Part shown: positions 2,010-30,929 of the stretch, piece after piece
Numbering within the stretch: the first letter of the stretch is position 1
Layout of the letters: every line of letters starts with the position of its first letter
Origin: Escherichia phage vB_EcoS_ESCO3
Direction: 5' to 3' (one strand)
DNA length: 59,956 nucleotides
Sequence record: OM386652.1
The notes under the pieces: model-generated
What the model was told of the DNA's origin: nothing
Seen by the model: the letters and a program-made list of their open reading frames with translations, nothing else
Databases searched by the model: none
Translations under genes and position numbers: made by a program

Positions 2010-3007
2010 AGACGAAATCCTACAATTACCCCACGTAGATTTTCACCATAAAAAATAATAGGAGTTGAAAGACCCCTTTCGTCCTTTTCATTGAAACGAG
2101 AAGCATCCCAATTCGTTGCAAGTCCTTTCAACTGCATAATAAGATCTATATTATACACGCCAATTGACTTAGATTCCCGGAACATTGCACTAGCACCGTC
2201 CAGCTCGTTGTAATGGGTACGCACAACACCATTTTCCATGTAAATACGCCCATCCCGCTCACAGAACGGTTTTATCTTTTCTAGGCAATTAAAAAGCTCA
2301 GTATCAAGCGTATAAACGTTGGCCCCATTTTCTGTACGCTCAATTATCTTATCAATGTTAGGCCACTTTAATTCCAGCAATTGTGTACGCAACCAGCAAC
2401 CGTCTTCGTAGTGAAATGTCATACTGGTATCTGTACATTGAATTCTTACTGGTGGTTTTTTAATACGCAATAATTCTTTTATGGCCATGCGTGGCACAAC
2501 ACAATCGACAGGGAATACAGCACCGAACCAATACTGTATAATACTAGCGTTATTGGTCGCGTACATGCTGCCCTGTTTTACCAGCACGCCGCAAGACCAC
2601 GGGCGGGAAGCATCATCGCTTATAAACGGCGTTACACGGCTTAAACCGTTGAGAAAAAGCTGACCGTCTATTTCGTGAATTGTTCCTTCTGGCTCTACGT
2701 GTGCAGTTGGTTTCTGAAGAGTATCCACACTAACCTTAAAGCCACCAGACTTAATGCTCAACTTACCGTTCGCTAACATTGTCATCTGTACAGCTTCGTC
2801 ACATGCTGCAATAGCCTTGAGCATCGGTTCAGCTTTAGGAGTACAGTCAATATTCAGTGGTACTGGACTACACAATGAAATAGTTCCGTTGAACCCGCGA
2901 ACAGTGCCATCAACAATACGGAAGTGAGTTAAACCTTCCTGAAGTTCTTTCTTAGCTACAGAGCCTGATACGAATTTAAGCGCGTCTAATAATTCAATCA
3001 CAAGCAA
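2006..3007 (-). CDS. putative sliding clamp (DnaN/beta-clamp-like) polymerase accessory protein
   Basis: 333 aa. N-terminus (LLDALKFVSGSVAKKE...DGTV) and C-terminal ...VGFRL resemble the bacterial beta clamp (which ends MPMRL). Translationally coupled to the polymerase gene. Weak, by-eye similarity only. Confidence 0.4.
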   Translation of the reverse strand: MLVIELLDALKFVSGSVAKKELQEGLTHFRIVDGTVRGFNGTISLCSPVPLNIDCTPKAEPMLKAIAACDEAVQMTMLANGKLSIKSGGFKVSVDTLQKPTAHVEPEGTIHEIDGQLFLNGLSRVTPFISDDASRPWSCGVLVKQGSMYATNNASIIQYWFGAVFPVDCVVPRMAIKELLRIKKPPVRIQCTDTSMTFHYEDGCWLRTQLLELKWPNIDKIIERTENGANVYTLDTELFNCLEKIKPFCERDGRIYMENGVVRTHYNELDGASAMFRESKSIGVYNIDLIMQLKGLATNWDASRFNEKDERGLSTPIIFYGENLRGVIVGFRL

Positions 3008-3533
3008 ATTCCTTATGTAATTTTGACCTAGTGAATTTCACAAAATTGTATGCTTTTTGCAAACCTTCCCAACTATATGGAAAACGTCTTCTTATTGTTT
3101 TGCCTTTAAATGTGATTCTAGCATCCCAATATGTATATCCACTAACGTCCAACTTTGAAATACCCTTTAGACCCGACGACCTATTATTACTTTGTACACA
3201 CCTATTACAATTATTCTCGGAATAGTTTGCAGCTCGCAAATTAGAAGGTCTATTATCTGTTTTTACTCTATTTATATGTTCAACGTGGGCTGGGTAATAC
3301 CCATGTGACATACAGAAACAGAGTCTATGAACTCTATAATTTTTATAAAGCAAGCCAACTTGCAGATAACCGTCCGAAGCTATACTACCAGCCGGAGAAC
3401 CTGCTATACAATTAGGAGCCCTTGTTATCCTGTTTATTAATTGTCCTGTATTCCTATCATAAATAAAGAATTTATCAAGTATTTCTTTACAAGGTTCATC
3501 AGACTGTATTTCAAAAGGTCTTGAGAGATCCAT
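2994..3533 (-). CDS. HNH homing endonuclease
   Basis: 179 aa. His/Asn-rich HNH core (YRVHRLCFCMSHGYYPAHVEHINRVKTDNRPSNLR) and a C-terminal basic DNA-binding-like region. AT-rich relative to its neighbours. Confidence 0.65.
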   Translation of the reverse strand: MDLSRPFEIQSDEPCKEILDKFFIYDRNTGQLINRITRAPNCIAGSPAGSIASDGYLQVGLLYKNYRVHRLCFCMSHGYYPAHVEHINRVKTDNRPSNLRAANYSENNCNRCVQSNNRSSGLKGISKLDVSGYTYWDARITFKGKTIRRRFPYSWEGLQKAYNFVKFTRSKLHKEFACD

Positions 3534-3541
3534 AAGTAACC

Positions 3542-26613: not shown

Positions 26614-27589
26614 AACCTCACCCTTGATAATAATAAATCGACTGATTTTGAAATTCAGTTGCCGGTTTATGTTTATTTTTACGCAGTGTGTTTTGCAATG
26701 CAATATTGATATATTTTGTCTTTGTATTGCAATGTTTTTGTATTGCAAAAATTACAACAGTCTGAAGGTGAGAAATTGTACATTTATAAAGATCGGTGAA
26801 AAAATGCACAATTTATAAAGATGCCGCAACATACGAAACGGCGAAGCGAAGTGTATGAAAAATAAGGGAAAATTTTGAGGATTGGGAGGTTTGTATGGGT
26901 TTATATTATTTATAAAGGGGTCCCGTAGGGGTCGTCAGTAGACAACTCAAAAACAAAAAATCTTTATAAAATTTATATAAATACACACATACACACACTT
27001 TTACCTTATTTTTCATGCACTTACCCCCTTTCATTTCGTACATTAAGCGACTATATATGAGCAATATGACATATATTTGTTGCGCAACGACTGTGTGTTT
27101 TCTAACCAATCGAAAGATTGCTTTATATACGTCCGCGCGTCTAACACAAAAGAAAAGTGGATTGCAAGCGATTTTTGCTGAGGTAACTCTCGAAGTGAAA
27201 GCGATTTGCGAGTTTGAAATTTTGTAGCCCGAAAACGATTCTATTTTATGGTATAAATGTCGGATTTTTCGGTGAAAGCGAGCTTTTTGGTGAGGTTGGG
27301 TGGCTGGGAACGGTGTAACTGGTAGCCCATAAAGCGAAAATAGCCGCGAAAACGGGGCACGCAGCGCGATTAAATGGTTGGATCAGTGTAAGGGTGGCGG
27401 TGAGGGGCGAAAATGCCGCAAAATCGCTTACAGGGATGCAGGGAGTGGATCGCTGTAAGGGCGTATAAGGCGATTAAATTGGAGTCTATGGTAATGTATG
27501 GAAGAAGGATTCAGGTTCTTAGAGCGCGAATGGTGGAGCTATGGGTGAGGAATATGTGGTCAGCAGGGTAGCGCGGGAGGTGGTGCGGG
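26614..27589. promoter_or_regulatory. large non-coding control region with multiple short direct repeats
   Basis: About 1 kb with no ORF of 60 aa or more in the track. Direct repeats TTTGTATTGCAA (26721-26732, 26737-26748), ATTTATAAAGAT (26782-26793, 26811-26822; further TTTATAAA copies near 26907 and 26961), GCGATTAAAT (about 27365 and 27470) and TGTAAGGG (twice). Plus strand is strongly purine-rich from about 27280 to 27600. Confidence 0.5.
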
Positions 27590-27629
27590 TACAAAAACGA
27601 AAGCGCCCCGTTGGACTTCAACAGGGCGC
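27590..27629 (-). terminator. rho-independent terminator for the leftward early operon
   Basis: Inverted repeat GCGCCCCGTTG / CAACAGGGCGC (one mismatch), which on the minus-strand transcript is followed by UUUCGUUUUUGU. Lies just downstream of the stop of gene 27653..27901. Confidence 0.65.
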
Positions 27630-27652: not shown

Positions 27653-27901
27653 TTATTTACTAGTTAATAATACCGCCCAGGTATTATCTGGAAGCGTACC
27701 AACTCCAAGTATCTTAAACTGAAGTGACTTGTTTTGTATGTTGTAGTTGTCGAGTAACTCCTGGGCAGCGGCAGCGGCGTTCGCTTCACCGCTCAGGTTG
27801 TAGTCGTTTGCAGTTATTGCACACATACCGAGGCCGACTGCTTTGAAGCGCATACCTTTGGATTGAGTCGGTGCCAGTGCTTTGACATGGATAGCGTTCA
27901 T
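27653..27901 (-). CDS. hypothetical small early protein (family B, copy 1)
   Basis: 82 aa. Paralogous to 28431..28676: both share a central AAA.EL segment and a C-terminal G..LPD motif. Confidence 0.45.
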   Translation of the reverse strand: MNAIHVKALAPTQSKGMRFKAVGLGMCAITANDYNLSGEANAAAAAQELLDNYNIQNKSLQFKILGVGTLPDNTWAVLLTSK

Positions 27902-27930
27902 ATTATTTATCTCCGTTACAATTTGAAAGG

Positions 27931-28188
27931 TTAGCAGTTTTTTAACATGTTAATGAAGCCCGCCAGCGTGGACGCTGTTGCAACCAGGCGACCCATAGTA
28001 TGCAGTTCGGCGTGAACTTTACCGTCGTCGAATACAGTTAAATAAACGTTAAGACCATTGCAACGGACGCGATATTTGCGCGAGTTATTATCGAAAGTTT
28101 CTAGCTCTGCGGTGATAGTCGCAAGATTAGCTATACGTTTGCCGATAATGCGGCGAGTGATAGTGGACTGGTTTAATACTGTAGACAT
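27931..28188 (-). CDS. hypothetical small early protein (family A, copy 1)
   Basis: 85 aa. N-terminal motif STITRRIIGKRIANL is shared with 29502..29807 (SQITKRIIGKRLHQL). Confidence 0.45.
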   Translation of the reverse strand: MSTVLNQSTITRRIIGKRIANLATITAELETFDNNSRKYRVRCNGLNVYLTVFDDGKVHAELHTMGRLVATASTLAGFINMLKNC

Positions 28189-28430
28189 AATAATTTCCTC
28201 TGTTAACTATGCGAAGTGCATATTATTGCCCACTGTTACTATGGGCAATGTATATGTCACTCAGCGGACACATATTCTAACGCTTCTGATAGTGTAGCGA
28301 AGTGACCATCACTCATCAGATTAATAGCGTACTCAAGTTGATCTCGGGTCAGGTTGCGAAACTTGTTGCGGATGTGATAGCAACGACCGCGATAAATAAC
28401 CTGGAAATAATTGCGTTCCATAATTATCCC

Positions 28431-28676
28431 TTAAGCAACGATGAACGCATAACCGCTTTGATCCGGGAGCTCACCGCCGGCAACAATCTCAAATTCAACG
28501 CCCGCTTTATCGTTGAACTTTTTGATAAGCTCTTCCGCTGCGGCGCGGTGGTTGCCGTAAACACCCAAATCGTCACGCCATGTGATAGTCAAGGAGCCGT
28601 TCCAGCCTGTTGCTTTTACGCGCGGGGCGCGAGCGGCAGTCGGGTTCATGAATTTTGTGATGATAGCTTGAGCCAT
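28431..28676 (-). CDS. hypothetical small early protein (family B, copy 2)
   Basis: 81 aa; paralog of 27653..27901. Confidence 0.45.
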   Translation of the reverse strand: MAQAIITKFMNPTAARAPRVKATGWNGSLTITWRDDLGVYGNHRAAAEELIKKFNDKAGVEFEIVAGGELPDQSGYAFIVA

Positions 28677-28681
28677 GATAA

Positions 28682-28900
28682 TTACTCCGGTAAAATTACA
28701 GTGACGTTAATATTTGCAATGCGAGCGCACTCGCGGAAACCTTTTACATAAGCATCCATTTCATCATAGGATGCGAAAGTTGCGTCCGGGACTGGTCCGT
28801 TGTTAATATTCACACAATATTCGTGTTCGTCCAGGTCTACCCAACAATTCAGAACTATAGTTCCCATATTATTTGCCCTCCGTATAGTACAGACCCGCAA
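28682..28900 (-). CDS. hypothetical protein
   Basis: 72-aa ORF. Confidence 0.4.
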   Translation of the reverse strand: MRVCTIRRANNMGTIVLNCWVDLDEHEYCVNINNGPVPDATFASYDEMDAYVKGFRECARIANINVTVILPE

Positions 28901-28945
28901 CTATTGGAGCTCCGAATACCAAGAACGCTAATAAGTAGAACATAA

Positions 28946-29425
28946 TTAGTTGCCCCCTTTATTGTTGAGCCCGTTGAATTTACGCCATGCGTAGAATTCA
29001 ATCGTTGCATTATTAATATTCCAACCATTAGCTTTCGCAAGGTCACGGACGTTACCAATAGTTGGCACACCATCAGGCAACATATTATCCAGAGCGTTCC
29101 AAACGTCTGCGCATTTACCTTTAATCGGACGACGAACCCCGTTGCGCGTTTCGCTGCGCGCCTTGCTCTTGGCGGGAGCGACCGGAGCTTGTTGTGTGGT
29201 CACTTCCACGACAGTCGCTTTATCAGCTTCGACCAGATCGTTGGCTGCCTTATTAACCGCGCCTTCGCTGAACCAGTAGCGGCCACCGTCTTCCATCGGC
29301 TCCTGGTGAATAAAGCTATTTGCTGTCGCTGTGTCTACGTCCAGAACCTTTTTCAAGGCACGGCGAGCGTTAGACATGTTGGTGAAAAAGCGAGCATCTT
29401 TCGCTACGCGAGTGATAGTTGCCAT
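28946..29425 (-). CDS. hypothetical early protein
   Basis: Start placed at the internal ATG at 29425 (MATITRVAK); the track ORF starts at 29440. Confidence 0.45.
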   Translation of the reverse strand: MATITRVAKDARFFTNMSNARRALKKVLDVDTATANSFIHQEPMEDGGRYWFSEGAVNKAANDLVEADKATVVEVTTQQAPVAPAKSKARSETRNGVRRPIKGKCADVWNALDNMLPDGVPTIGNVRDLAKANGWNINNATIEFYAWRKFNGLNNKGGN

Positions 29426-29501
29426 TGTAAATATCTCCATGTTGTTCTAGCGGATTGCTAGTGGGAGCCCACTGTGACAATGGGCAACCATTAGCACGCT
29501 A

Positions 29502-29807
29502 TTATTGTTGAATAGCTTTAGCTATCATTGTGATGAAGCAGAACACAGACCAAANGCTATTCGCTTGGCATACTGGGCGACCATACATTACGCTATAAGA
29601 GCTGACAGTGCCGTCTTCGTTAATGCGAACGTATAACGCGGTGCTGGAATATTTTTCGTTGCCCGGGAGCATTACCAGATACTCATCGAAATCCCAATCC
29701 CCGTCAACCTTTTCCGCTGTAAGGCCCAGCTGATGCAGGCGCTTGCCGATAATGCGCTTAGTAATCTGAGATTGGGACATGGAACGCGGTAAGTAGATAA
29801 TGGACAT
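29502..29807 (-). CDS. hypothetical small early protein (family A, copy 2)
   Basis: Start placed at the ATG at 29807 (MSIIYLPRS) with a GGGAG ribosome-binding site; the track ORF extends to 29861. Contains one ambiguous base (N at 29565). Confidence 0.45.
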   Translation of the reverse strand: MSIIYLPRSMSQSQITKRIIGKRLHQLGLTAEKVDGDWDFDEYLVMLPGNEKYSSTALYVRINEDGTVSSYSVMYGRPVCQANSXWSVFCFITMIAKAIQQ

Positions 29808-29882: not shown

Positions 29883-29911
29883 ATAGTATGACAACAGGGT
29901 ATCAGATGCAA
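29883..29911 (-). promoter_or_regulatory. candidate sigma70-type early promoter (leftward)
   Basis: On the minus strand: -35 TTGCAT (29906-29911), 17-nt spacer, -10 TACTAT (29883-29888). Sits about 70 bp upstream of the first leftward gene. Confidence 0.4.
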
Positions 29912-29996
29912 CTATTATCTGCATTATTTTAGAACTTTTTTAGTTGTATTTCATAATAATAACATCCGGGACTATGTGGTAGATGGTGTGCCGGAA

Positions 29997-30059
29997 ATAC
30001 CAGGTAGCGCGAGCGTGCTGAAAATACCAGGTAACAGCACGCGCCGAACATACCAGGTA
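29997..30059. repeat. three direct repeats ATACCAGGTA (iteron-like)
   Basis: Copies at 29997-30006, 30024-30033 and 30050-30059, spaced 26-27 bp. The middle copy sits in the loop of the inverted repeat GCGTGCTG / CAGCACGC. Confidence 0.5.
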
Positions 30060-30177
30060 GCACATACATAAACAGCACATAGTGGGCAGGTCGATAGTAA
30101 CAGATGCAATTATACTGGACGGTACAGTATAGTCATGTAATAGATAGCATACTAATCAAATAAAAAATAATAACGCG

Positions 30178-30391: not shown

Positions 30392-30563
30392 ATACTCGAG
30401 ATCAGATTTACAAGATTCGGTTTCCTGTATGTGTAACTGATTTGCCGCACAAGATTTAAAGCACACGAGACAGCTAACTGTGGTTATTAATTGTTGCGGC
30501 CGGCTATGTTAATCAACTTGCGTATCCTGTTATAGTTATTCCGTTAACGTTAAAGGGGTTTAT

Positions 30564-30929
30564 ATGAACGAGAATATAGTTAAAGCCTGGTCTATCTTAC
30601 GACCACAGCTGAAAGACGATCGTGTCGCTTTTGTTTTATGTCCTGTTAACGAATATCGCCGGAAGCTCGAAGAAGTGTTGCGCGAGGATCCTGAGTTCGT
30701 TCGCTGTGTACAACTGTCGCGCGAGTCATCCGTGGTACAGTTTGATCGTTTCCACCTTCGTTTGGTTTCTCATCACAGAGCCTCGTATGAAGACACTGTT
30801 ACTCGTACGAGTGGCTTCCATTGTGATATTGCAATCCTTGACTGCAAACTGGACATTGGGCAGAAACAAAATTTATATAATCTCGCTCGTGAACGTCACG
30901 GTGAATTGTTAATTGTGGAAGTGCAATAA
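30564..30929 (+). CDS. hypothetical protein
   Basis: 121 aa; first gene of the rightward arm; GGGG ribosome-binding site before the ATG. Confidence 0.5.
   Translation: MNENIVKAWSILRPQLKDDRVAFVLCPVNEYRRKLEEVLREDPEFVRCVQLSRESSVVQFDRFHLRLVSHHRASYEDTVTRTSGFHCDIAILDCKLDIGQKQNLYNLARERHGELLIVEVQ

Follow-up and report, generated by a model that had tools for sequence, protein, structure and literature searches.

A probable early accessory operon with two families of small paralogous proteins in Escherichia phage vB_EcoS_ESCO3 and related Nonagvirus phages

Escherichia phage vB_EcoS_ESCO3 (OM386652.1, a stretch of 59,956 nucleotides analysed at its full length and hereafter called the window) carries a minus-strand operon of eight genes in which two families of small proteins, A and B, are each represented twice. 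These genes are real, conserved across relatives and already catalogued as hypothetical, and the copies within each family are old paralogues sitting in a mix-and-match accessory operon. As for their role, the most likely general picture, to which we assign a probability of about 0.5, is that of an accessory operon entering the cell first and supplying early binding proteins directed at the host; the same cannot be said of any specific target, each of which is much less probable.

The operon and its place in the genome

The 3.2-kb region around the A and B genes is 96.5% identical to coliphage JenP2, and most of its other matches lie at 90–95% identity, all of them within the genus Nonagvirus (9g-like phages of the subfamily Queuovirinae). 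The GC skew of the window changes sign near 26–30 kb, a switch that fits the two divergent transcription halves of phage 9g (PMC4276943). In that phage, the virion DNA has its physical left end at position 28,243 in the numbering of Kulikov et al., who described the half of the genome next to it as early (PMC4276943). Position 28,243 aligns to ~30281 of the window, on the promoter side of the operon running from A2 to B1, which would make this operon the first coding DNA to reach the cell. Its early timing is one that we infer from the genome architecture described for 9g in a single paper. An Rfam scan of the window returned zero matches.

The operon is bracketed by a sigma-70-like promoter and a strong terminator, and its genes follow each other in the order A2, X, a 24-aa micro-ORF, Y, B2, Z, A1 and B1. 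Its elements, from the promoter to the terminator, are:

30109..30136, minus strand: sigma-70-like promoter, ATGACT-16-TATAAT, 10/12 matches, the best promoter-like site of the region
29987..30062, minus strand: three 23-nt direct repeats found by a repeat search, core TACCTGGTAT (coding strand), spaced by 26–27 nt
29502..29807, minus strand: A2, 101 aa, family A (phrog_13865), GGGAG ribosome-binding site before its ATG start; the base at 29555 is ambiguous
28946..29425, minus strand: X, 159 aa, phrog_17772, GGAG site before the start at 29425, a start that agrees with the annotation of its relatives
28869..28943, minus strand: hydrophobic micro-ORF of 24 aa, conserved peptide MFYLLAFLVFGAPIVAGLYYTEGK
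28682..28867, minus strand: Y, 61 aa, acidic (pI 4.2), phrog_5461 by profile match; absent from 9g
28431..28676, minus strand: B2, 81 aa, family B (phrog_3199) by profile match
28257..28421, minus strand: Z, 54 aa, phrog_18706 by profile match
27931..28188, minus strand: A1, 85 aa, basic (pI 9.8), family A (phrog_13865) by profile match
27653..27901, minus strand: B1, 82 aa, family B (phrog_3199), divergent lineage, final gene of the operon and kept in all relatives
27603..27629, minus strand: intrinsic terminator with an 11-bp stem (8 G-C pairs) and a T-run, closing the operon

The promoter, whose counterpart in the 9g annotation is a leftward BPROM promoter, lies ~150 nt inside the mapped left end. 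It is followed by a leader of ~300 nt holding the three direct repeats, which may serve as an operator or in packaging. Every ORF of the operon has a Shine-Dalgarno-like site 6–10 nt before its start, and a terminator is annotated at the equivalent place in phages HdK1 and SP8. Gene X is found in all the Queuovirinae operons examined, with homologues in Seuratvirus and in Klebsiella relatives. The micro-ORF is annotated in BASEL phages only; its peptide is unchanged in 10 of the 11 Nonagvirus loci, SP8 having one conservative change. Scans of the seven operon proteins with Pfam, NCBIfam and PADLOC gave zero matches.

Other virulent phages are known to possess early accessory operons that enter the cell first, such as the class I genes 0.3–0.7 of T7 and the pre-early region of T5. 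The operon studied here resembles them: a host-type promoter stands at the entering end, small non-essential ORFs follow one another up to a terminator, and the gene content varies between relatives. It differs from the T7 operon in that neither A nor B shows any sequence or fold kinship to Ocr, gp0.4, gp0.7 or any protein of known activity, and from the T5 region in that neither is related in sequence or fold to the T5 proteins that are also named A1 and A2.

Paralogy, alleles and the origin of the four genes

An earlier note on this DNA had proposed that the A and B genes form two pairs of paralogues, derived from the tandem duplication of a two-gene module behind an early promoter. All four ORFs were recovered on the minus strand exactly where the note had placed them, and its order of A2, B2 and A1-B1 behind the promoter agrees with the ORF map; the promoter site and the left-end mapping of 9g likewise bear out that these are genuine, promoter-proximal genes for small proteins, in what would be a first-entering early operon. 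With BLASTP, A1 and A2 align at 33% identity over 87 columns (E = 2e-9), and B1 and B2 at 37% over 73 columns (E = 4e-11), so that both pairs exceed 20% identity and do share conserved motifs, as the proposed paralogy would have it. The motif described for family A is present as IT[RK]RIIGKRxxxL, while among those described for family B, KA.G and AAA.EL were found as given and the third, G..LPD, is actually G.LPD (a trivial slip).

Profile searches agree with these alignments: phrog_13865 matches A1 (E = 6.7e-37) and A2 (E = 1.2e-59) over their full length, and phrog_3199 matches residues 1–80 of B1 (E = 6.7e-25) and B2 (E = 1.9e-29). A six-frame HMM scan of the 60-kb window with profiles of the two families detected exactly two A and two B copies. 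Between A and B, hhalign returned a probability of 0.3%, meaning that the families are unrelated. Both PHROG families are of “unknown function” and the proteins of the window are ordinary full-length members of them; their orthologues are annotated as hypothetical in JenP2, JenK1, 9g, BRET and the BASEL phages Bas19 and Bas20. The phrog_3199 profile has 181 positions, compared to the single-domain B proteins of the window, because its core is the tandem B-B fusion of the Chi type (see below).

The idea of a duplicated module survives only in part. What stands is the A-B cassette itself: in the Klebsiella Queuovirinae phages examined, K9PH25C2 and Kpn2-P2, the homologous operon ends in a single A gene and, directly behind it, a B1-type gene, with a stop/start overlap of 4 nt in both phages. 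Such a single pair argues for a genuine and probably ancestral cassette, and the ancestral place of A was probably directly upstream of a B1-type gene. In the 12 Nonagvirus genomes compared (window included), A1 occurs exactly where B1 belongs to its type-I allele, which is consistent with A1-B1 having been inherited as one unit; A1-B1 is a genuine and conserved cassette, and its two genes are possibly coupled in translation. What does not stand are the tandem layout and the co-inheritance of the four genes, and a sister relation of the two B copies finds no support.

Regarding the layout, X, the micro-ORF and Y separate A2 from B2, and Z separates B2 from A1, so that the genes are not collinear as A-B-A-B. 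Nor is X a later insertion, given that phages possessing just one A-B pair have it as well. At the DNA level, the paralogues share no similarity beyond 17 nt encoding RIIGKR. The region is mosaic and its gene content varies among relatives, here in agreement with the note, as shown by comparing gene presence across Nonagvirus loci: A1 is missing from 9g, SE1, SP8 and JenP1; ChristophMerian has A2 and lacks B2 and Z; in FritzHoffmann, B2 is present and A2 is replaced by an unrelated gene of 57 aa; BRET, PD328 and SP8 have an extra 88-aa gene. A1, A2 and B2 having been lost or replaced independently in these relatives, the inheritance of the four genes is not that of two modules.

The history of the B genes was further considered in a neighbour-joining tree of 150 family B sequences. 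It supports a B1 clade (0.99) and a B2 clade (0.96), while an exclusive group of B1 and B2 appears in 4% of 200 bootstraps; the alignment having 84 columns only, this is to be read as a lack of support for a sister relation and not as its refutation. B2 is 45–49% identical to homologues from Pseudomonas and rV5-like phages, against 37% to B1, and the nearest relatives of B1 beyond its own clade include, from rank 5, B2-type proteins. An old duplication followed by a rapid divergence of B1 would still be compatible with this tree. For family A, which is confined to Queuovirinae, a duplication within the subfamily is the simplest origin of A2, and this restricted occurrence is compatible with A1 and A2 being each other's nearest relatives.

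Selection was estimated with the Nei-Gojobori method on seven operon genes, comparing the window to 11 sequenced relatives. All seven are under purifying selection (dN/dS 0.085–0.23), with values of 0.085 for A2, 0.115 for X, 0.16 for A1, 0.19 for B2, 0.22 for B1 and 0.23 for Z. B1 and B2 are far more variable than the other genes of the operon, their neighbours being 89–98% identical between phages (A2 likewise, in 10 relatives). Each of the two B genes exists as two allele types, at 60–70% versus 83–98% amino-acid identity; for B1, the corresponding values are 60–65% and 83–98%, with a dS of about 1. The arms-race divergence that the note had seen in these genes has no counterpart in gene-wide positive selection, dN/dS being near 0.2 and dS about 1 between allele types. 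The variation of B1 and B2 is that of old alleles exchanged by recombination, to judge from these sequence comparisons, and not that of rapid positive selection in place.

Taken as a whole, the scenario of a tandem duplication of an ancestral A-B module, whose copies then diverged in an arms race with host defences and were separated by later insertions of X, the micro-ORF, Y and Z, appears unlikely. It does account for the ancestral adjacency of A and B in Queuovirinae, for the comparable divergence of the two pairs (33% and 37%), for the confinement of family A, which makes A2 most simply a duplicate, and for the B genes being the most variable of the operon. It is at odds, however, with a non-tandem layout in which X is shared even with carriers of a single pair, with the 4% bootstrap grouping of the B clades, with a B2 nearer to homologues of unrelated phages than to B1, with genes gained and lost independently, with the purifying regime just described and with copies devoid of DNA similarity. 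We rather regard A2 and B2 as probable separate additions, individually dispensable, and not as the second half of a tandem module; this view is part of the best explanation to which the probability given at the outset applies.

Distribution and predicted structure of families B and A

Family B is phage-only and ranks among the larger uncharacterised families, without a Pfam entry. Two single-sequence word-index searches retrieved close relatives only, whereas a profile search of 1.84 billion representatives yielded 2,867 family B clusters (50% identity) at E ≤ 0.001. Among the best matches listed, nearly all are stand-alone proteins of 75–110 aa, with two domains in a few cases. The 177–179-aa proteins of phage Chi (gp30) and its relatives are B-B tandem fusions. 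All source and cluster names read “hypothetical”, and ten longer family B proteins scanned with Pfam showed neither matches nor fused domains. In the phage database, the family occurs in Nonagvirus, Seuratvirus, Chi-like, rV5-like, Flaumdravirus, T7-like Klebsiella and Roseobacter phages. The B genes of the six loci inspected are surrounded by small genes of unknown function; the B gene precedes those for the kinase and the RNA polymerase in a T7-like Klebsiella phage and that for the primase in a Roseobacter phage, and it is adjacent to a recombination exonuclease gene in phage Chi. Across 80 diverse viral contigs (IMG/VR), B is single-copy in 78 of the loci and no recurrent neighbour family was detected. 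A search of 72,556 plasmids, made with a leading-region anti-defence context in mind, found no B homologue at all.

Conservation is strongest in the N-terminal half of the B proteins (QAI.TKyLgPTNtrGsRiKA ... NH.aAA). The near-invariant positions K8, T13, R19, N42 and A46 (B2 numbering) are all present in both B1 and B2, while B1 lacks H43 and W33, and B2 lacks N14/T15/G17. The N-terminal beta-hairpin of the family is basic (median charge +4), and NH..AA comes after it, where the helix begins. Being near-invariant, the polar motif might reflect a job intrinsic to the phage, such as the handling of its own DNA or RNA, rather than a host target. The model of B2 (pLDDT 90.9) has a beta3-alpha-beta2 topology, i.e., five strands and one helix, and superposes on BFVD models of other family members with TM scores of 0.8–0.96. 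PDB sequence searches with B, A and X returned nothing significant, and no close solved structure was matched for family B.

Family A was found in Queuovirinae only in our homologue searches. The AlphaFold2 model of A1 consists of a helix, a five-strand meander and a second helix; its confidence is moderate, with a pLDDT of 70 that falls below 50 in the conserved N-terminal motif. On this model, family A would be a basic alpha/beta protein specific to Queuovirinae, again as one element of the overall explanation retained above.

Known anti-defence, TetR and HicB families were compared to A and B, and none of them fits. Neither Bas19 nor Bas20, both of which possess orthologues of these genes, is listed in the AntiDefenseFinder table published for the BASEL phages. 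An acidic DNA mimic of the Ocr/ArdA type was rejected in view of the pI of the A and B proteins (6.6–9.8). Another lead came from Bas19, which is without B2 and Z and is reported to be somewhat sensitive to EcoKI; it was dropped because Bas19 and Bas20 hold only 0 and 1 EcoKI sites, respectively.

Proposed role and competing explanations

The operon is best viewed as a self-contained unit of eight small accessory genes, closed by a terminator, that would be the first to enter the cell. Its families A and B are unrelated in fold, and both are represented by two ancient paralogues; genes and alleles are swapped by recombination among related phages. In our proposal, the A and B proteins may be non-enzymatic binders, expressed early, of a conserved host component or of nucleic acid, and may act in host takeover or in counter-defence. 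The existence of tandem B-B fusions suggests that B works as a two-domain (dimeric) unit, in which case the two B lineages of the operon would probably supply different specificities or form a heterodimer. A more ambitious version, which we offer only tentatively and hold to be less likely than its converse, is that family B constitutes a new and widespread class of phage-specific early effectors, acting as a dimer or a tandem on a target conserved across Proteobacteria and paired with A in Queuovirinae. Our literature search on these PHROGs, on a Nonagvirus transcriptome or on these genes in accessory-gene screens retrieved nothing.

Three other roles have to be weighed against this proposal. 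TetR proteins are typically ~190 aa long and all-alpha. B (perhaps also A) might be a DNA-binding regulator of the early/late switch, acting on the repeats of the divergent promoter region: the 9g paper (PMC4276943) and a GenBank note call gp3, the B2 orthologue, TetR-like, three 23-nt repeats do occur in the operon leader, and both the N-terminal hairpin of B and the A1 protein are basic. The likeness of 9g gp3 to TetR regulators is in the published label only, since B2 has 81 aa, its beta3-alpha-beta2 model is mainly beta with a single helix and has no helix-turn-helix, and neither TetR_N nor any other Pfam family matches at E ≤ 1; a TetR identity of gp3 can be rejected on these grounds. Moreover, thousands of phages share the conserved B motif although their promoter regions are unrelated, a pattern better explained by a common ligand than by sequence-specific operators, and B is single-copy without a conserved regulatory neighbourhood. 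We thus consider a regulatory role very unlikely.

Even less credible, to the point of being nearly negligible, is that B mimics a HicB-like antitoxin and neutralises HicA-type toxins of the host, thereby countering abortive infection. The N-terminal domain of HicB, a partial RNase H fold (PDB 6g1c and 6g1n, as well as 2yzt, which we take to be HicB-like), does have the same strand-strand-strand-helix-strand order as B and a similar size. Yet the scores are at noise level for small domains, no HicB family of Pfam matches at E ≤ 1, no HicA-like gene lies nearby and the conserved polar motif of B is without a known counterpart in HicB. Finally, the function of B might concern nucleic acids and be intrinsic to the phage, with neither the host nor its defences as a target: B would, for instance, protect or handle the DNA end that enters, or act as an RNA/DNA chaperone. 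We judge this alternative improbable. An early, host-directed binding role remains the reading that we prefer.

In general terms, there is nothing unusual for a phage genome in an operon such as this one, where small early accessory genes, some of them paralogous, are shuffled among relatives. Family B appears to sit in the early regions of many groups of virulent phages, at least in those that we inspected, and one published annotation is corrected, 9g gp3 not being TetR-like. What gives the locus a lasting, if modest, interest is how large and how well conserved family B is, together with the natural knock-outs found among sequenced relatives. Indeed, the sequenced Nonagvirus phages provide natural variants without A1, A2 or B2 and Z, plus two divergent alleles each of B1 and B2, so that the function of B and A could be sought by comparing existing phages or through simple deletions. 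If B were truly a new class of effectors, then the Nonagvirus operon, with its two B and two A lineages and its natural knock-outs, would be a ready-made system for finding the target.

Leader and flanks of the operon

Two sets of repeated sequences lie in or next to the leader of the minus-strand operon:

29987-30062: a 23-nt direct repeat in three copies (plus-strand core ATACCAGGTA), at a spacing of 26-27 nt
30097-30113 and 29899-29915: two copies of a 17-nt element, 198 nt apart

Both copies of the 17-nt element overlap a hexamer resembling a -10 box, after which the minus strand reads TGCATCTG(T/A)TAC, and this recurrence of element and hexamer suggests that two tandem putative promoters drive the operon. 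The 23-nt repeats lie within the leader, with divergent promoters on either side and a mapped virion DNA end nearby, and could represent candidate operator, iteron or packaging sites.

Beyond the leader, the window lacks a plus-strand ORF of 288 nt (9g_00039 in phage 9g) that is carried by 9g, JenP2, JenK1 and SE1, among others. In these phages, it stands upstream of the homologue of the window gene 30564..30929 (annotated as “potential sigma factor” in 9g); here, 68 nt (30411-30478) replace approximately 290 nt. In HdK1, the same spot is occupied by an HNH endonuclease gene. At the other end, immediately past the operon terminator, about 0.9 kb (~26750-27600) are devoid of convincing ORFs and display scattered short repeats; searching Rfam with this stretch returned no match. 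In Klebsiella relatives, the matching location holds 1.2 kb of non-coding DNA with many spaced motifs of the TTAGC/TCAGC type. This part of the window may serve as an origin or have a regulatory role.

Protein X, the micro-ORF and A2

Among the genes of the operon, only X (28946-29425, minus strand) and B1 were found in every operon examined. X is conserved in Seuratvirus and in the Klebsiella Queuovirinae, and its C-terminal domain of about 70 aa (NGVRRPIKGK...ATIEFYAWRKF) also matches four other PHROG families. Pfam and PDB gave no match for the protein. Between X and Y lies a very short gene with its own ribosome-binding site:

28869-28943 (minus strand): micro-ORF encoding a hydrophobic peptide of 24 aa, MFYLLAFLVFGAPIVAGLYYTEGK

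The peptide is identical in 10 out of 11 Nonagvirus relatives, and thus more conserved than the products of the neighbouring genes. Its annotation is confined to the BASEL phages (Bas19 and Bas20); it may be a single-pass membrane peptide. Regarding A2, one ambiguous base (N at 29555) falls in codon 85, which specifies Leu in 9g.

Family B and the A1-B1 cassette

Two GenBank notes on the phage 9g locus, “TetR family transcription regulator” for the B2 orthologue (3243-3488) and “similar to bacterial oxidoreductases” for the 54-aa Z orthologue (3068-3232), were supported neither by any profile match nor by the predicted fold. Elsewhere, in Chi gp30 (2998-3537 of the phage Chi locus, 179 aa) and related proteins, two family-B domains are fused in tandem, which explains the 181 positions of the phrog_3199 profile. 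Two separate B-family genes less than 1 kb apart (1481-1780 and 2321-2623) were observed in a single one of the 80 environmental viral contigs (L040), a Nonagvirus aside.

The 68-nt Z-A1 spacer holds the following features:

28226-28248 (minus strand): hairpin with a 7-bp stem, TTGCCCA-N9-TGGGCAA
28178-28215 (minus strand): two weak promoter-like sites

The A1-B1 cassette has its upstream breakpoint at this spacer; in 9g, SE1, SP8 and JenP1, a lone type-II B1 (one of two allele types) takes the place of the cassette. The cassette may be a moron-like unit.
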